From assembly GCF_024223415.1 (NCBI RefSeq), contig NZ_CP100500.1: 64,000 nucleotides of DNA, one strand, 5' to 3'. Of the stretch, positions 399 to 64,000 are shown piece after piece. The notes beneath the pieces were generated by a model. It was not told the DNA's origin, made no database searches, and saw only the letters and a list, made by a program, of their open reading frames with translations. The stretch's first letter is position 1; every line of letters begins with the position of its first letter. The translations under genes and the position numbers were made by a program. The DNA is from Escherichia coli (lineage in GTDB: Bacteria; Pseudomonadota; Gammaproteobacteria; Enterobacterales; Enterobacteriaceae).

Positions 399-3300
399 TT
401 ATTCCGGGCGCGGCTTCAGCGGGAAGCGGCGGCGCACCAGCACAAAGAACAGCGGCACGAAGTAAATAGCCAGAATAGTAGCTGAAATCATCCCGCCCAT
501 TACGCCAGTACCCACCGCATGCTGACCACCGGAACCGGCACCCGTGCTGGTTGCCATTGGCAATACGCCGAAGATAAATGCCAGCGAGGTCATCAGAATC
601 GGGCGTAAACGCTGACGGCAGGCGTGGAGCGTTGCTTCAAACAGGTCGTGGCCTTTTTGGTTCATCTCGTTAGCAAACTCGACGATCAGGATGGCGTTTT
701 TCGCCGATAAACCAATGACCGTTAACAGGCCCACCTGGAAGTAAACGTCGTTTTCCAGCCCGCGCATCCAGGTTGCCAGCAGCGCGCCGATTACCCCCAG
801 CGGCACGACCAGCATTACCGAGAACGGTACCGACCAGCTTTCATACAATGCAGCCAGACACAGGAATACCACCAGCAAGGAAATGGCGTACAGCGCCGGA
901 GCCTGCGCGCCGGAAAGCCGCTCCTGATACGACATCGCCGTCCACTCCAGACCAAAGCCGTTTGGCAGCTGCTTCACTAACGATTCCATAATATCCATCG
1001 CCGTACCGGTACTGACCCCCGGTGCGGCTTCCCCAACAATTTCAACCGCAGAATAACCGTTATAGCGTTCCAGACGCGGCGAGCCTGTCTCCCAGCGTGA
1101 GGTCGCGAAAGCAGAGAAGGGCACCATGCCGCCATCTTTATTTCGGACATACCAGAGATTGATGTCATCTGGCAGCATGCGATACGGCGCAGCTGCCTGC
1201 ACATAGACTTTCTTCACGCGACCGCGATCCATAAAGTCATTCACATAGCTCGAACCCCAGGCGGTTTGCAGTGTGTCGTTAATATCGTCGATAGCAACGC
1301 CCAGCGCCTGAGCTTTACGCTGGTCGATATCAATCTGCAACTGCGGACTGTCGTCGAGGCCGTTATGGCGCACACGGGTTAGCTCCGGGTTTTCCGCCGC
1401 CAGCGCCAGCAACTGGTTACGTGCTGCCATCAGCGCATCGTGACCTGCTCCAGCGTGGTCCTGCAACTCCATATCAAAACCCGCAGAACTACCAAGACCG
1501 CTAATTGCTGGCGGGCTGCTGGCGATAACGCGAGCTTCTTTAATCTTGTTAAACGCCTTCGTTGCACGCTCGATAATGGCAAATGAGGTGCCGGTCTTAC
1601 TGTCGCGTTCGCTCCAGTCTTTCAGGCGGATAAACATTCGCGCCACGTTTTGCCCGTTACCCCCAGGGCCAGAACCAACAGTGGCAAACACCGACATGAT
1701 GTTGTCTTTTTCATGGGTGAAGTAATATTTCTCGATTTGCTCAACGACTTTCAGGGTCTGTTGTTGGGTTGAACCGCTGGGCAATTGTACCGAGGTAGTA
1801 AACATGCCACGGTCTTCCAGCGGTAAGAACGACGTCGGTAAACGCAGGAACAGGAACACCATGCCGCCAAGCAGCAGGACATAAATCACAATCCAGCGCA
1901 GGCTGCGGTGGAGAATTTTCGCCACCCCTTTTTCGTAGCGTTCGGCGTTGCGGTTAAACATCTGGTTAAACCAGGCAAAAAAGCCTTTTTGCCCGTGATG
2001 CTCACCTTTTTTCAGTGGCTTAAGTAGTGTGGCACACAGAGCCGGAGTGAGGATCATCGCTACCAGTACTGACAGCACCATCGCCGCAACAATGGTAATA
2101 GAGAACTGGCGATAGATGGCACCGGTGGTGCCGCCGAAGAAGGCCATTGGTACAAATACCGCCGAAAGCACCATCGCAATCCCGACCAGTGCCCCCTGGA
2201 TCTGCCCCATCGATTTACGTGTGGCTTCGCGAGGACTGAGTCCTTCCTCACTCATAATACGTTCGACGTTTTCCACCACCACGATGGCGTCATCCACCAG
2301 CAGACCGATCGCCAGCACCATCGCGAACATGGTTAAGGTGTTGACGCTGTAACCGAAGGCGTAAAGTACGGAGAAGGTTCCCATCAACACCACCGGCACG
2401 GCGATAGTGGGTATCAGCGTGGCGCGGAAGTTTTGCAGGAACAGATACATAACGAGGAAAACCAGAGCGATAGCTTCCAGCAGCGTTTTCACCACGTCTT
2501 CAATGGAGGCTTTAACAAACGAGGTGGTTTCATACGCCACCTTGTATTCCAGTCCATGCGGGAAATACTGCGCCAGCTCGTCGAGACGATTGAGCACCAG
2601 CTCCGCTGTCGCCATTTCGTTAGCGCCGGAGGCCAGTTTTACCCCCAGCCCGGAGGCTGGCTTACCATTGAAGCGGCTAAGATAATCGTATTTCTCCGCC
2701 CCCATTTCGACGGTGGCGACATCGCCCAGCCTTACCTCTGAGCCGTCCTGATTCACCCGCAAGGTGATATCGCGGAACTGTTCTGGTGTTTGCAGCAGTG
2801 ACTGGGCGTTAATGGTGGCGTTGAGCGCCTGCTTATCGACGGAAGGTGTACCACCAAGTTGCCCAACCGCAATCTGCGCGTTCTGTGACTCAATGGCATC
2901 AGTGACATCTTTAGCCGTCATCTGGAAACTGTTGAGTTTCGCCGGGTCCAGCCAGATACGCATGGAATATTGCGAACCATAGGCATCGATATCCCCGACG
3001 CCATTCACGCGGCTTAACGGGTCCTGAATATTACTGGCAACATAATCGGCAATATCCTGTTTATCCATCGAACCATCGGTAGAGACGAAAGCAATGGTCA
3101 GAATATTGGTATCGCCGGTTTTACGCACCGTCACGCCCTGATTTTGCACCGCCTGCGGTAACTTTCGCATGGCTGATTGCAGCTGGTTTTGTACTTGCTG
3201 CACGGCTTCGTCCGGATCGGTGCCTGCTTTAAAACTTAAAGTGACAGATGCCTGACCGGTGCCACTGCTCTGAGATGACATATACATGAGATTATCGAGG

Positions 3301-5581: not shown

Positions 5582-7561
5582 ATGAATCGTTTTATTATGG
5601 CCAACAGTCAGCAATGTCTGGGTTGTCATGCTTGTGAAATCGCCTGTGTCATGGCTCACAATGATGAGCAACATGTCCTGAGCCAACACCATTTTCATCC
5701 CCGAATTACGGTTATCAAACATCAGCAGCAACGTAGTGCAGTGACCTGTCACCATTGTGAAGATGCGCCCTGCGCCCGTAGCTGCCCTAATGGCGCAATC
5801 AGCCACGTTGATGACAGCATTCAGGTCAATCAGCAAAAGTGTATTGGCTGTAAATCCTGCGTGGTGGCCTGTCCGTTTGGTACGATGCAAATCGTCCTGA
5901 CACCCGTCGCAGCGGGCAAGGTTAAAGCCACGGCGCATAAATGCGACCTTTGTGCAGGGCGCGAAAACGGTCCTGCCTGTGTCGAGAATTGCCCGGCGGA
6001 CGCGCTGCAGCTGGTCACTGACGCCGCACTCTCAGGCATGGCGAAATCCCGCCGCTTGCGTACCGCACGTCAGGAACATCAACCGTGGCATGCCAGTACC
6101 GCTGCACAAGAAATGCCGGTAATGAGTAAAGTCGAACAAATGCAGGCAACGCCCGCGCGTGGCGAGCCGGATAAACTGGCGATTGAAGCGCGCAAAACCG
6201 GTTTTGATGAAATTTATCTGCCATTCCGTGCCGATCAGGCACAACGGGAAGCCTCGCGCTGCCTTAAATGCGGCGAGCACAGCGTTTGTGAATGGACCTG
6301 CCCGCTGCATAACCATATACCGCAGTGGATTGAACTGGTGAAAGCCGGAAACATCGACGCCGCCGTCGAGCTTTCTCACCTGACCAACACCCTGCCGGAA
6401 ATTACCGGACGCGTTTGTCCGCAAGACCGTTTGTGTGAAGGTGCCTGTACTATTCGCGATGAGCACGGTGCGGTAACTATCGGCAACATTGAACGCTACA
6501 TTTCAGATCAGGCGTTGGCGAAAGGTTGGCGTCCTGACTTAAGCCATGTCACCAAAGTGGACAAGCGGGTGGCGATTATCGGTGCAGGTCCGGCAGGGCT
6601 GGCCTGTGCGGATGTTCTGATCCGCAATGGCGTGGCGGTGACGGTGTACGATCGCCATCCAGAAATCGGTGGCTTGCTCACTTTCGGCATTCCTTCTTTC
6701 AAACTGGATAAATCCCTGCTGGCACGTCGTCGGGAAATCTTCAGCGCGATGGGGATTCACTTCGAACTCAATTGTGAAGTGGGTAAAGATGTCTCTTTGG
6801 ATTCGCTTTTGGAACAATACGACGCGGTCTTCGTTGGCGTAGGCACTTACCGTTCCATGAAAGCGGGTTTACCCAATGAAGATGCGCCGGGCGTTTATGA
6901 CGCGCTGCCGTTCCTCATCGCCAACACTAAACAGGTGATGGGGCTCGAAGAGCTACCGGAAGAGCCGTTTATCAATACCGCCGGACTCAACGTCGTGGTA
7001 CTGGGCGGCGGCGACACCGCGATGGACTGTGTGTGTACTGCGCTGCGCCACGGCGCGAGTAACGTCACCTGCGCTTATCGTCGTGATGAAGCTAACATGC
7101 CAGGCTCGAAGAAAGAGGTGAAGAACGCCCGCGAAGAGGGGGCCAACTTCGAATTTAACGTCCAGCCGGTGGCGCTTGAGCTGAATGAACAAGGTCACGT
7201 TTGCGGGATTCGTTTCCTGCGTACGCGTCTTGGCGAGCCGGATGCCCAGGGGCGTCGGCGTCCAGTACCGGTGGAAGGCAGTGAATTTGTCATGCCAGCC
7301 GACGCGGTGATTATGGCGTTTGGCTTCAATCCGCACGGGATGCCGTGGCTGGAGTCGCACGGTGTAACGGTAGACAAATGGGGCCGCATCATCGCGGATG
7401 TGGAAAGCCAGTACCGTTACCAGACCACCAATCCGAAAATCTTCGCCGGTGGCGACGCCGTGCGTGGTGCGGATCTGGTGGTTACCGCAATGGCAGAAGG
7501 ACGTCATGCGGCACAGGGGATTATTGACTGGCTGGGGGTAAAATCAGTCAAATCTCACTGA
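5582..7561 (+). CDS. aegA: Fe-S / FAD-NAD(P) oxidoreductase AegA (GltD-like, 659 aa)
   Basis: N-terminal 4Fe-4S ferredoxin Cys clusters (CxxCxxCxxxCP) followed by a glutamate-synthase-small-subunit-like domain. Confidence 0.85.
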   Translation: MNRFIMANSQQCLGCHACEIACVMAHNDEQHVLSQHHFHPRITVIKHQQQRSAVTCHHCEDAPCARSCPNGAISHVDDSIQVNQQKCIGCKSCVVACPFGTMQIVLTPVAAGKVKATAHKCDLCAGRENGPACVENCPADALQLVTDAALSGMAKSRRLRTARQEHQPWHASTAAQEMPVMSKVEQMQATPARGEPDKLAIEARKTGFDEIYLPFRADQAQREASRCLKCGEHSVCEWTCPLHNHIPQWIELVKAGNIDAAVELSHLTNTLPEITGRVCPQDRLCEGACTIRDEHGAVTIGNIERYISDQALAKGWRPDLSHVTKVDKRVAIIGAGPAGLACADVLIRNGVAVTVYDRHPEIGGLLTFGIPSFKLDKSLLARRREIFSAMGIHFELNCEVGKDVSLDSLLEQYDAVFVGVGTYRSMKAGLPNEDAPGVYDALPFLIANTKQVMGLEELPEEPFINTAGLNVVVLGGGDTAMDCVCTALRHGASNVTCAYRRDEANMPGSKKEVKNAREEGANFEFNVQPVALELNEQGHVCGIRFLRTRLGEPDAQGRRRPVPVEGSEFVMPADAVIMAFGFNPHGMPWLESHGVTVDKWGRIIADVESQYRYQTTNPKIFAGGDAVRGADLVVTAMAEGRHAAQGIIDWLGVKSVKSH

Positions 7562-7628
7562 TAGCCTGCGCAGACAAACCCGACTTCACAGCGTAATATA
7601 ATTGTTCATTTCGCGCTGTGGAGTCGGT

Positions 7629-8204
7629 ATGACGCAACAAATCACCCTCATTAAAGACAAAATTCTCTCCGATAACTATTTCACCCTGCACAACATTACT
7701 TACGATCTCACGCGCAAAGATGGCGAAGTTATCCGCCATAAACGTGAAGTTTACGATCGCGGTAATGGTGCGACGATCCTCCTGTACAACGCGAAGAAAA
7801 AGACCGTGGTTCTGATTCGTCAGTTCCGTGTCGCTACCTGGGTTAATGGCAATGAAAGCGGGCAGCTGATTGAAACCTGCGCCGGGCTGCTGGATAACGA
7901 CGAACCGGAAGTGTGCATTCGCAAAGAAGCGATTGAAGAGACGGGCTATGAAGTGGGCGAAGTGCGCAAATTATTTGAACTGTATATGTCGCCAGGCGGT
8001 GTGACTGAGCTAATCCACTTTTTTATCGCCGAATACAGTGACAATCAGCGCGCTAACGCCGGTGGCGGTGTCGAAGATGAAGATATTGAAGTGCTCGAGC
8101 TGCCGTTCAGCCAGGCGCTGGAGATGATCAAAACCGGCGAGATACGTGACGGTAAGACGGTGTTATTGCTTAACTATTTGCAAATGTCACATTTAATGGA
8201 CTGA
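7629..8204 (+). CDS. nudK: GDP-mannose pyrophosphatase NudK (Nudix, 191 aa)
   Basis: ORF 7602-8204; start taken at [10 protein letters not shown]; Nudix box present. Confidence 0.85.
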
Positions 8205-8329
8205 AAAATAACAATAATATTTCGTTGTTTATTCTTGGCTCAATCCGACAAATCCGATTGAGCCACGCTACCTGCGCAACGAAGATACGACTTGTGCTGT
8301 TTGTTTGAACTTCTGGGGTCGTACCGTCC

Positions 8330-9373
8330 ATGCGCTATCGCATTTTCCTTCTCTTTTTTTTCGCTTTGTTGCCGACGTCTTTGGTGTGGGCGGCACCAGC
8401 GCAACGGGCGTTTTCCGACTGGCAGGTCACCTGTAATAACCAAAACTTCTGCGTGGCGCGTAATACGGGCGATCATAATGGACTGGTGATGACCCTGAGC
8501 CGCAGCGCCGGGGCGCATACCGATGCCGTTTTACGTATTGAGCGCGGCGGGTTGAAGTCGCCGGATGCGTCTGAAGGGGAAATTGCGCCACGGCTGCTGT
8601 TAGATGGCGAGCCGTTGGCGTTAAGTGGTGACAAGTGGCGGATTTCACCATGGTTATTAGTAACCGATGATACGGCAACCATCACCGCGTTTTTGCAGAT
8701 GATTCAGGAAGGGAAGGCGATCACCTTACGCGACGGCAATCAGACCATTTCTCTGAGTGGCTTAAAAGCGGCGTTGTTGTTTATTGATGCTCAGCAAAAG
8801 CGCGTTGGCAGTGAAACCGCGTGGATCAAGAAAGGGGACGAACCGCCGCTCAGCGTACCGCCCGCGCCTGCGCTGAAAGAGGTCGTGGTGGTTAACCCAA
8901 CGCCGACGCCACTCTCACTCGAAGAACGCAACGATTTGCTGGATTATGGAAACTGGCGGATGAATGGTCTGCGCTGCTCGCTTGATCCATTGCGTCGTGA
9001 GGTGAATGTCACTGCGCTGACTGATGATAAAGCGCTGATGATGATTAGCTGTGAGGCAGGGGCCTATAACACCATTGATTTGGCATGGATTGTGTCGCGT
9101 AAAAAGCCACTAGCCTCGCGTCCGGTTCGGTTGCGTTTGCCGTTCAACAACGGGCAGGAGACAAATGAACTGGAACTGATGAACGCAACATTTGATGAGA
9201 AATCGCGTGAACTGGTGACCTTAGCGAAAGGGCGCGGATTAAGCGATTGTGGCATTCAGGCGCGCTGGCGCTTTGACGGTCAGCGTTTTCGCCTGGTGCG
9301 TTACGCCGCAGAACCCACCTGCGATAACTGGCATGGGCCAGACGCCTGGCCCACGTTGTGGATCACCCGTTAA
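8330..9373 (+). CDS. ypfG: DUF1176 periplasmic protein YpfG (347 aa, signal peptide)
   Basis: ORF with N-terminal signal peptide; position and length match ypfG. Confidence 0.8.
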   Translation: MRYRIFLLFFFALLPTSLVWAAPAQRAFSDWQVTCNNQNFCVARNTGDHNGLVMTLSRSAGAHTDAVLRIERGGLKSPDASEGEIAPRLLLDGEPLALSGDKWRISPWLLVTDDTATITAFLQMIQEGKAITLRDGNQTISLSGLKAALLFIDAQQKRVGSETAWIKKGDEPPLSVPPAPALKEVVVVNPTPTPLSLEERNDLLDYGNWRMNGLRCSLDPLRREVNVTALTDDKALMMISCEAGAYNTIDLAWIVSRKKPLASRPVRLRLPFNNGQETNELELMNATFDEKSRELVTLAKGRGLSDCGIQARWRFDGQRFRLVRYAAEPTCDNWHGPDAWPTLWITR

Positions 9374-9389
9374 ACAAAATGGCGGGACA

Positions 9390-9473
9390 TGTAGGCCGGG
9401 TAAGACGCTGTAGGCCGGATAAGACGCGTCAGCGTCGCATCCGGCAATCAGCATCCGGCGATCACCATCAGGC
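9390..9473. repeat. REP/BIME cluster (tandem palindromic units)
   Basis: Repeated gccggataagacgc / gcgtcgcatccggc palindromic units typical of E. coli REP elements. Confidence 0.7.
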
Positions 9474-11471
9474 ACCTTTTACTCCCAGCACCTTATGCGC
9501 TTTTGCCACAATATTCTCGGCGGTAAAGCCAAAGAACGGGAACAGCTTATCCGCCGGAGCAGATTCCCCATAACCCGTCATCCCGACAATTGCCCCTTTC
9601 AGACCAACATACTTGTACCAGTAATCGGCAATACCTGCTTCCACCGCCACGCGAGCCGCAACGTTAGAAGGCAACACCGACTCCCGATATTCCTCATCCT
9701 GGGCGTCGAAAATATCGGTCGAGGGCAGGGAAACTACGCGTACATTGCGACCTTCTCCCGCTAATTTCTCTGCCGCTTGCAGGGTGATTTCCATCTCTGA
9801 ACCGGTGGCAATCAGAATAATATCCGGCTTGCCGCCGCTGTCTTTCAACACATAACCACCACGAGCAATCTCTTTAACCTGATCCGGCGTACGTTCTACC
9901 TGGGCCAGATTCTGCCTGGAGAGAATCAGTGCCGTCGGTCCGTTGTGGCGCTCAACCGCCAGCTTCCAGCCCACCGCCGCTTCCACCTGATCGCACGGTC
10001 GCCAGGTGCTGAAATTTGGCGTTAAGCGCAGGCTGGCCAGTTGCTCAACAGCCTGGTGCGTCGGACCATCTTCGCCCAGACCAATTGAGTCGTGGGTATA
10101 AACCATAATCTGCCGCGCTTTCATCAGTGCCGCCATCCGCGCGGCGTTACGGGCGTATTCAACAAACATCAGGAACGTTGCGGTATACGGCACAAAGCCG
10201 CCGTGGTGCGCAATGCCGTTGGCGATAGCGGTCATGCCAAATTCACGCACCCCGTAGTGAATGTAGTTGCCCGCCGGATCTTCCTTCAGCGAAACAGAAC
10301 CTTTCCAGATGGTCAGGTTGCTGGGAGCCAGATCCGCCGAACCGCCGAGCAGCTCCGGTAGTATCGGCCCGTAAGCGTTAAGCGTATTTTGCGAAGCCTT
10401 ACGGGTAGCGATTTTCGCCGGATTTGCCTGTAACTCATTGATATATTTCTGAGTCGTTTTCTCCCAGTCCTTCGGTAAACCACCGCTCATCCGACGGGTA
10501 AACTCTTCTGCCAGTTGCGGATGAGCCTTTTTATAGGCAGCAAACTTCTCATTCCAGCTCTGCTGCGCTTTTTCGCCTTTTTCGCGGGCATCCCAGGCGT
10601 GATAAATCTCTTTAGGGATTTCAAATGGCGGATGGTGCCAGCCCAGTTTTTGCCGTGCCAGCGCCACTTCTTCTTCCCCCAGTGGTGCGCCGTGCGCCTC
10701 TTCCTTACCTGCTTTATTCGGCGAACCAAAGCCTATTACCGTACGGCAGATAATCAGCGACGGCTTATCTTTCACGCTTTGCGCTTCAAGGATCGCTTCC
10801 TTCACCGCTTGCGGATCGTGACCGTCGATTTCATGGATCACATGCCAGTGATAGGCTTCAAAACGTTTTGCCGTATCGTCGGTAAACCAGCCTTCGGTTT
10901 CTCCATCAATCGAAATACCGTTGTGATCGTAAAAACCAATCAGCTTGCCCAGTCCCAGCGTGCCCGCCAGCGAACAGACTTCGTGGGAAATACCTTCCAT
11001 CAGGCAGCCGTCGCCCATAAACACATAGGTGAAGTGATCGACGATCTCATGGTCTGGCTGGTTAAACTGTGCAGCCAGCGTACGTTCCGCTATCGCCAGC
11101 CCGACGGCGTTCGCCAAACCTTGTCCAAGAGGACCGGTGGTGGTTTCAACTCCGGGCGTATAGCCGATTTCCGGGTGGCCAGGGGTTTTCGAATGCAGTT
11201 GACGAAAGTTCTTCAGCTCTTCCAGCGGCAGGTCGTAACCGGTCAGATGCAGCAAACTGTAGAGCAGCATCGACGCGTGACCGTTGGAAAGAATAAAGCG
11301 GTCGCGATCATACCAGGTTGGGTCGGTAGGGTTATGTTTAAGAAAATCGTTCCACAGCACTTCGGCAATATCAGCCATGCCCATCGGCGCGCCGGGATGA
11401 CCAGAATTGGCTTTTTGTACCGCATCCATACTGAGTGCGCGAATCGCATTGGCAAGGTCTTTTCGGGACAT
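9468..11471 (-). CDS. tktB: transketolase 2 (667 aa)
   Basis: ORF 9468-11534; start set at [13 protein letters not shown]; TPP-binding transketolase motifs; adjacent to talA. Confidence 0.9.
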
Positions 11472-15009: not shown

Positions 15010-15299
15010 TTCTTTTTTAACTCTCACGCTTACCCTGAATATTCAGGGTAAGCGGTCCAGCTGCAATATATTAGTAAAGATTATTACTGAGTTTACGAAT
15101 AATAAAAAAAGCAATATAAAATATCTCGATATTATTTTATTTATATTCATGCGTCGCATATGAAAGTTTATTCATAACAGTAAATATCTCTCCATTCTTA
15201 GTGATCTACCTCACCTTTTAAACGCGCTTGCCGAATTTTGTTATTTACTCTGACGAAAAATTGTCACGATACACGAAAGTTTTTCACAGGCGGCGACTC

Positions 15300-30422: not shown

Positions 30423-30467
30423 CCTGTCGGAGGTGCCGGGTGTCCTACAACACCCGGCATTAACATC

Positions 30468-35020: not shown

Positions 35021-36004
<984 letters not shown>

Positions 36005-43643: not shown

Positions 43644-44518
43644 TGGCGGAAGTTACCCAATTGAAGCGTTATGACGCGCGCCCGATTAACTGGGGCAAAT
43701 GGTTTCTGATTGGCACCGGGATGCTGGTTTCGGCGTTCATCCTGCTGGTGCCGATGATTTACATCTTCGTACAGGCATTCAGCAAAGGGCTGATGCCAGT
43801 TTTACAGAATCTGGCTGACCCGGACATGCTGCACGCCATCTGGCTGACGGTGATGATTGCGCTGATTGCCGTACCGGTAAACCTGGTGTTCGGCATTCTG
43901 CTGGCCTGGCTGGTGACGCGCTTTAACTTCCCCGGACGCCAGTTACTGCTGACGCTACTGGACATTCCGTTTGCCGTGTCGCCAGTGGTTGCCGGTCTGG
44001 TCTATCTGCTGTTCTACGGCTCTAACGGCCCGCTCGGCGGCTGGCTGGATGAACATAATCTGCAAATTATGTTCTCCTGGCCGGGAATGGTACTGGTGAC
44101 CATCTTCGTGACGTGTCCGTTTGTGGTGCGCGAACTGGTGCCGGTGATGTTAAGCCAGGGTAGCCAGGAAGACGAAGCGGCGATTTTGCTTGGCGCGTCT
44201 GGCTGGCAGATGTTCCGCCGCGTCACATTGCCGAACATTCGCTGGGCGCTGCTTTACGGCGTGGTGCTGACCAACGCCCGCGCGATTGGCGAGTTTGGCG
44301 CGGTGTCGGTGGTTTCCGGCTCGATTCGCGGCGAAACCCTGTCGCTGCCGTTACAGATTGAATTGCTGGAGCAGGACTACAACACCGTCGGCTCCTTTAC
44401 CGCCGCCGCGCTGTTAACGCTGATGGCGATTATCACCCTGTTTTTAAAAAGTATGTTGCAGTGGCGCCTGGAGAATCAGGAAAAACGCGCACAGCAGGAG
44501 GAACATCATGAGCATTGA
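43643..44518 (+). CDS. cysW: sulfate/thiosulfate ABC permease CysW (291 aa)
   Basis: Recognised sequence. Confidence 0.9.
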
Positions 44519-58852: not shown

Positions 58853-58913
58853 ATCGCAGATAGCAAAAAAGCGCCTTTAGGGCGCTTTTTTACATTGGTG
58901 GGTCGTGCAGGAT
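58853..58913. repeat. 61-bp direct repeat, copy 1 (lysV 3-prime end plus terminator)
   Basis: Identical to 59009-59069: atcgcagatagcaaaaaagcgcctttagggcgcttttttacattggtgggtcgtgcaggat. Confidence 0.85.
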
Positions 58914-59008: not shown

Positions 59009-59069
59009 ATCGCAGATAGCAAAAAAGCGCCTTTAGGGCGCTTTTTTACATTGGTGGGTCGTGCAGGAT
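59009..59069. repeat. 61-bp direct repeat, copy 2 (authentic lysV 3-prime end plus its terminator)
   Basis: Includes the last 18 nt of tRNA-Lys and the rho-independent terminator hairpin gcgcctttagggcgc with its T/A runs. Confidence 0.85.
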
Positions 59070-63895: not shown

Positions 63896-63971
<76 letters not shown>

Positions 63972-64000
63972 AATTTTGCACCCAGCAAATTTGGTACGTA

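Follow-up and report, generated by a model that had tools for sequence, protein, structure and literature searches.

Thirty-three nucleotides past the stop codon of nudK (8202-8204), this Escherichia coli genome carries a perfect inverted repeat that can be read as the 3′ stem-loop of the nudK mRNA or as a palindromic site for a DNA-binding protein, and the locus thus raises the question of which of these it is and which of its two neighbours it serves. In the window, that is, the whole 64,000-nt stretch analysed here, aegA (5582-7561), nudK (7629-8204) and ypfG (8330-9373) follow one another and tktB lies beyond them on the other strand. Both ORFs flanking the repeat are annotated as nudK and ypfG in RefSeq E. 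coli, in agreement with the names proposed by a first-pass annotation of this DNA. The nudK-ypfG spacer is 125 nt long, and over the 251 bp that we compared, identity is 100% with strain SCU-316 and 98.4-98.8% with K-12 derivatives. The features needed first are these:

7629-8204, plus strand: nudK, GDP-mannose hydrolase, the upstream neighbour, to which the element is not tied
8237-8264, no strand given: inverted repeat GGCTCAATC-N10-GATTGAGCC, with a long stem only in Escherichia and three other lineages and without covariation
8315-8318, plus strand: Shine-Dalgarno-like GGGG in the conserved block CyGGGGTTGTaCC, upstream of the ypfG ATG
8330-9373, plus strand: ypfG, DUF1176 protein with a signal-peptide-like N-terminus, the gene that the element appears to serve

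The inverted repeat and its RNA fold

The two arms, GGCTCAATC (8237-8245) and GATTGAGCC (8256-8264), are perfect reverse complements that form nine pairs around a 10-nt loop, just as first described, and they correspond to positions 2582843-2582870 on the minus strand of NC_000913.3. In this strain a tenth pair, T8236-A8265, can be added, and within the loop G8247 can pair with C8254 and A8248 with U8253. Taken as RNA, the 43-nt segment has a folding energy of -16.4 kcal/mol, as compared with -4.1 ± 1.9 kcal/mol for its shuffles (z -6.4; none of 200 shuffles was as good). The 64-kb window has 14 sites with a perfect inverted repeat whose stem is at least 9 bp and whose loop is 3-12 nt long; about half of these are terminators of the A-tract/GC-stem/T-tract type, and the 8237-8264 repeat belongs to the remainder. 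The fold statistics and this census therefore identify the inverted repeat as real and beyond chance. The allele in the window is rare, with only six records at least 99% identical over 71 nt, and in most E. coli, K-12 included, 8234 is A and 8265 is G, and the tenth pair is then a T-G wobble.

The stem is directly followed by ACGCTACCTGCGC, hence by no T-run, and the terminator scan made no call at this position, which bears out the earlier view that the hairpin lacks a U-tract and is not an intrinsic terminator. An Rfam scan of 7400-9600 at E ≤ 10 gave no match at the hairpin and only weak, REP-like naRNA4 matches downstream of ypfG. The latter fall in a cluster of REP/BIME-type repeats between ypfG and tktB (9380-9466), where naRNA4 (RF02564) is matched on both strands with 38 and 27 bits, below the gathering score of 59.5.

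Other palindromic features of the window were recorded alongside. Further perfect inverted repeats of at least 9 bp without A/T tracts lie at 15027-15054, 30434-30459, 35063-35085, 44051-44074 and 63968-63995 (CGCTTACCCTGAATATTCAGGGTAAGCG and GAACATAATCTGCAAATTATGTTC are examples), and these too may serve as operators and not as terminators. At 58865-58891 and 59021-59047, 156 bp apart, stands a pair of identical palindromes, AAAAAAGCGCCTTTAGGGCGCTTTTTT, that resemble bidirectional terminators. The ypfG start codon itself is covered by a 5-bp hairpin (ATGCG-CTAT-CGCAT) that precedes a T-rich run (8330-8353); the scan flagged it as terminator-like, at chance level (one found, 1.0 expected), and its sequence differs in other genera. 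Within ypfG, a Salmonella sigma-54 ChIP-chip site, TGGCAGGTCACCTGCAAT, has been reported (PMC3844500), and its E. coli counterpart at 8420-8437 reads TGGCAGGTCACCTGTAAT, with the -12 GC changed to GT.

Conservation of sequence and of pairing

A NudK scan with one genome per species yielded 80 Enterobacteriaceae loci, 77 of which have ypfG downstream of nudK; 74 species loci and the window, aligned on the conserved core, made up the anchored set (n = 75). The spacer between the two genes measures ~120-129 nt in about half of the species and ~65-110 nt in most others. The consensus of the anchored set reads ctATCcGAtaAaTCcGATTGAGc, then 17 variable nucleotides of fixed length, then gAAgATAc, and it is made of the conserved blocks ATCcGAyaAaTCyGA, TTGAG(c), the fixed-length spacer and gAAGAT. 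In terms of the hairpin, the right arm and the loop are near-invariant and the left arm beyond ATC is not conserved.

Conservation had been proposed as a check on the hairpin, and its outcome is divided, strongly positive for the DNA sequence and negative for the stem. Across 50 distinct species covariation was absent (score 0.037; the shuffles averaged 0.050, and 488 of the 500 scored at least as high) and the outer five pairs formed in 12-44% of the species, while the inner pairs are invariant and therefore uninformative on structure. Folds of the 43-nt segment that are at least as stable as -11.8 kcal/mol are confined to Escherichia and three other lineages, and the median MFE for the family is -5.1 kcal/mol. 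Compensatory changes that keep pairing, the mark of a conserved structured RNA, were not seen. A second helix predicted in the E. coli spacer, between 8287-8293 and the Shine-Dalgarno region, was also discarded as a conserved structure: RNAalifold gave no consensus helix for it, and the per-species folds were no better than those of shuffles (mean z +0.64).

An RcsB-like box beside a putative ypfG promoter

What is conserved instead can be read, from nudK towards ypfG, as an activator box followed by a weak promoter:

8244-8257, plus strand: 14-bp RcsB-box-like dyad TCCGACAAATCCGA, agreeing with TN(G/A)GAN4TC(T/C)NA at seven of eight specified positions
8258-8263, plus strand: putative -35 TTGAGC (4/6), directly adjoining the box, with TTGAG invariant in the 75 anchored sequences
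8264-8280, plus strand: 17-nt spacer, variable in sequence and almost fixed in length in the box-anchored alignment
8281-8286, plus strand: putative -10 GAAGAT (3/6, weak), with A2 and T6 in 75/75
8293-8294, plus strand: predicted ypfG transcription start, from hexamer spacing and analogy with rprA, which would place the box at -49 to -36

The RcsB box TN(G/A)GAN4TC(T/C)NA was published on the basis of crystal structures and EMSA (PMC7913699). At ypfG, the promoter-proximal half follows this consensus, whereas the distal half has C or T where a purine is expected. The box pattern is matched in 75 of the 77 ypfG-bearing Enterobacteriaceae sequences, and the other two carry a recognisable variant. 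Positions G4, A5, T10, C11 and A14 are invariant; position 12 is only C or T across species, within the consensus, and position 3, where a purine is expected, is a pyrimidine (C or T) throughout the species. A strict search therefore finds nothing at this site, and the strict RcsB consensus has no match elsewhere in the 64-kb window either. By our own arithmetic, ~0.16 matches at 7/8 are expected by chance per 125 bp, so that the consensus match taken alone is weak. A second 7/8 match, TTGGCTCAATCCGA at 8235-8248, overlaps the main box from 9 bp upstream in E. coli and has a TCCGA half-site in common with it; this match is not conserved beyond Escherichia.

The -35-like hexamer starts at 8258, immediately after the last base of the box (8257), which is the position expected of an activator site if the predicted start is correct. 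No indel interrupts the box-anchored stack of 75 sequences, and the best-scoring spacer between the hexamers is 17 nt in nearly all of them and 16 or 18 nt in six. Positions 1, 3 and 4 of the -10 drift (GAACAT, GAATAT, GATGAT, TAGAGT, CAGGAT), and the retention of A2 and T6 amid this drift reads as the evolutionary pattern of a real -10. Hexamers 16-18 nt apart with conserved A-11 and T-7 are what a sigma-70 promoter would display. TTGAGC-17-GAAGAT scores 7/12, short of the scan threshold of 9/12, and hexamers this weak (4/6 and 3/6) fit an activator-dependent promoter. The published TSS tables that we examined have no entry for the region. Readings as sigma-28 (GCCGATAA), sigma-54, sigma-E or sigma-S promoters were dropped by eye, the spacing or key bases being unfit.

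The hairpin is thus very probably best explained at the level of DNA, as a ypfG promoter with an activator dyad adjoining its -35. Of the alternatives first offered, the protein-binding palindrome is the one favoured by sequence conservation, fixed spacing and the junction of box and -35. The axis of the inverted repeat, between 8250 and 8251, is also the dyad axis of the 14-bp box, from which it follows that the right side of the stem would consist of the box edge and the -35, and the left side would be their mirror image. The right arm would accordingly start with the final two box bases, continue through the -35 hexamer and end one base past it, and the rest of the box would supply the loop and inner pairs. 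Outside the box, the left arm would be an extension of the Escherichia lineage that happens to mirror the -35, and the RNA hairpin in read-through nudK transcripts would be a by-product.

Comparison of the loci further indicates that the element belongs to the downstream gene, ypfG, and not to nudK, to which it had at first been tied: it is lost with ypfG, and it follows ypfG where nudK is not adjacent. E. albertii has kept nudK (96% identical) and lost ypfG, and in its spacer remnant a 9-nt deletion merges the two half-sites into one, the -35 is changed and the fold amounts to -3.9 kcal/mol. In two Pluralibacter genomes without ypfG the motif is absent and a GC-rich hairpin follows nudK. A Pluralibacter MAG with ypfG (L072) has undergone a deletion that joined the last nudK codons to the right half-site, and the result, aTGGACTAATCCGA/TTGAGC, has no left hairpin arm and shows the GA-N4-TC pattern of the box with a distal half of consensus type. 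Box and nudK stop codon overlap in Klebsiella and Raoultella. A clustered representative search added YpfG homologues that are more distant: one of 44% identity has an unrelated divergent gene upstream and yet keeps TCCGATAAATCTTA/TTGAGT/18/CAGGAT; another of 47% identity has TCCGATAAATCTGA/TTGAGG/17/CATGAT, ~500 nt past the nudK stop and 113 nt before the ypfG ATG; in a third of 42% identity the box is absent.

Two insertions were encountered at the locus. In one of 5,426 genomes, that of E. coli G5, IS1A lies between the nudK stop and the element (L002, 2251-2948; about 8200-8204 in the window), and box and promoter are still joined to ypfG. Buttiauxella massiliensis carries a ~120-nt insertion with inverted repeats of its own in the predicted ypfG 5′ UTR (L082, ~3150-3270), downstream of the -10, with the unit from box to -10 intact.

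The rprA promoter has a matching layout. It reads TGAGACGAATCTGA/TCGACG/17 nt/TACTAT, with 6 nt to +1 and the box at -49 to -36 from the annotated RNA start, and a 23-mer spanning -33 to -53 was crystallised with RcsB (PMC7913699). Like rprA, ypfG has a GA-N4-TC pseudo-palindrome of 14 bp that runs straight into a -35-like hexamer, which a 17-nt spacer follows, and with the start taken 7 nt past the -10 (~8293, predicted) its box would fall at the same distance as that of rprA. The promoter-proximal halves are near-identical (AATCTGAT in rprA; AATCCGAT or AATCTGAT in ypfG), and both genes are induced by envelope stress. Unlike rprA, ypfG has TCYGA in place of TNRGA as its distal half in every species, its -10 GAAGAT is weaker than TACTAT, and in Escherichia its dyad is extended to a 28-30-bp perfect palindrome mirroring the -35. 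In the rcsA and wca (cps) promoters, the RcsAB box (TaAGaatatTCctA) belongs to the same half-site family as the ypfG box, and the RcsB-bound rcsA site TAAGGTTTATCCGA contains the same ATCCGA half. However, RcsAB boxes are located far upstream (-275 to -247 in rcsA) and need RcsA, whereas the ypfG box adjoins the -35. The osmB and bdm genes are also described as RcsB-activated.

Candidate regulators and what they mean for ypfG

Published transcriptomes tie ypfG expression to RcsB and Rcs signalling. Inhibition of LolCDE raised ypfG 38-44-fold, in a list dominated by osmB, ycfJ, bdm, wca, ypeC, ivy and rcsA (PMC5105897), and in an O157:H7 isolate with a disrupted rcsB, ypfG was down 4.6-fold, together with ycfJ (-25-fold) and ypeC (-24-fold) (PMC5343319). 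Serum induced ypfG only when complement was active, along with ycfJ and ygaC (PMC4145685), and upon RP4 conjugation ypfG was among 13 genes induced in two recipient species, again with ypeC. This link to Rcs could be indirect. Combining it with the box, we infer that the palindrome is regulatory DNA of ypfG, and that its dyad probably receives an activator, most likely RcsB. At 8244-8257 the dyad would be occupied by a dimeric activator of the FixJ/NarL type, phosphorylated RcsB being the most likely one, directly beside the -35 TTGAGC, from which 17 nt lead to the poor -10 GAAGAT. Centred near -42.5, the activator would touch RNA polymerase and make up for the weak core promoter, so that ypfG would be turned on in envelope stress.

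The pyrimidine at position 3 of the box opens another possibility, in which the site is still a ypfG promoter/operator and the protein is different: either another regulator of the direct repeat ATCCGAy-N2-ATCCGAT, or a heterodimer in which RcsB holds only the promoter-proximal half and the partner is RcsA, BglJ, GadE or MatA. Found in all sequences, this conserved departure from TN(G/A)GA makes the halves a direct repeat, TCYGA-N4-TCYGA, for which a different protein or a heterodimer could be responsible, and conservation in fact reaches out to A-TCCGA-y, so that two direct repeats of 7 nt stand at a period of 9 bp. Sites for BglJ-RcsB resemble ypfG in that their RcsB-type half (wwTTCykA) faces the promoter and the partner reads the other half (PMC3950696). 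Moreover, the literature searched contains no report of direct, physical binding of RcsB~P at the ypfG site, and the supplements of PMC7913699 and PMC2731931 have no ypfG entry. Against a change of protein, ypfG co-varies with the RcsB-homodimer targets osmB, bdm and ivy and drops on rcsB disruption, its sequence is close to the rprA box, and the distal half is replaced by consensus-type GGAC in L072, where the promoter is kept. RcsB, besides, accepts variant halves of lower affinity, and its read-out has been described as weak and tolerant (PMC7913699). On this evidence, we consider a different protein or a heterodimer the main rival reading, yet an unlikely one, and RcsB remains the preferred candidate.

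An addition to the RcsB reading concerns the left arm of the hairpin, which creates a -35-like hexamer on the opposite strand:

8214-8243, minus strand: candidate mirror promoter, TTGAGC (8243-8238), 18 nt, TATTAT (8219-8214), from a consensus scan only and speculative

Such a promoter would fire antisense into the nudK 3′ end. In Escherichia, and perhaps Salmonella, one RcsB dimer on the dyad might then drive a bidirectional promoter, with ypfG transcribed rightward and a nudK-antisense RNA leftward from a start at ~8207. The minus-strand hexamers score well only in these two genera, and promoter-like sites numbered two against 1.3 expected per kb, so that a single match lies within chance; we regard the bidirectional arrangement as a long shot. 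GDP-mannose, which NudK hydrolyses, is the precursor of the sugars of colanic acid, and Rcs induces the synthesis of these sugars. Were the arrangement real, the antisense RNA could lower NudK and spare GDP-mannose while capsule is made.

It is very improbable that the element acts as an RNA stem-loop at the 3′ end of the nudK mRNA that blocks 3′-to-5′ exonucleases once transcription has terminated through Rho or past a read-through, or otherwise sets that end, the first of the two alternatives originally named. As in terminators and 3′ protective stem-loops, a stable, GC-containing stem lies soon after a stop codon; no intrinsic terminator separates nudK from ypfG, the stem is kept in three Escherichia species, and the trimming of Rho-dependent transcripts is known to end at stable stems. 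Unlike those structures, however, this one has neither a U-tract nor conserved pairing, it is lost beyond Escherichia save in three other lineages, and it is linked to the downstream gene: the E. albertii stem has decayed although nudK is intact, and the conserved part follows ypfG. Nor does a stem require that the right arm be far more conserved than the left. The mapping of 3′ ends, suggested at the outset as a check, points the same way, since, among the ends listed in the tables of one E. coli Term-seq data set (PMC7815308), none is assigned to nudK and none falls at 2,582,700-2,583,099; low expression of nudK could hide one, so this negative carries little weight. The sole ypfG-labelled end in those tables is on the opposite strand at 2,581,778, within the ypfG 3′ end and just downstream of tktB (PMC7815308).

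Finally, that the palindrome is a Fur operator and ypfG iron-regulated can be all but dismissed: a study of ExPEC in serum assigns ypfG a predicted Fur box and enters Fur, as a prediction, for its regulation (PMC4145685), but in the spacer GATAATGATAATCATTATC is matched at no more than 11/19, at 8207-8225, outside the palindrome and within A/T-rich sequence that is not conserved, this score is reached 320 times in the 64-kb window and is thus background, and the ypfG response needed active complement and came with ycfJ and ygaC, which are among the genes most strongly co-induced with known Rcs targets under the LolCDE inhibitor.

The ypfG site, with RcsB as its most probable ligand, is therefore of a well-known kind, and we did not find this instance described in the literature searched that mentions ypfG. 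For genome scans it carries a caution, in that a highly stable hairpin just past a stop codon may represent the -35 and palindromic operator of the gene that follows. The two cases can be separated quickly by arms that differ in conservation, by a spacer that varies in sequence and not in length, and by the disappearance of the element along with the downstream gene. Searches for RcsB sites by consensus alone would likewise overlook those conserved sites in which the distal half does not conform to TN(G/A)GA. The earlier assignment of ypfG to Fur is probably wrong, and control by RcsB would account for the recurrence of ypfG beside ypeC, ycfJ and ygaC in envelope-stress transcriptomes. YpfG, an uncharacterised and widely conserved periplasmic DUF1176 protein, would thereby gain a concrete regulatory input, probably RcsB.
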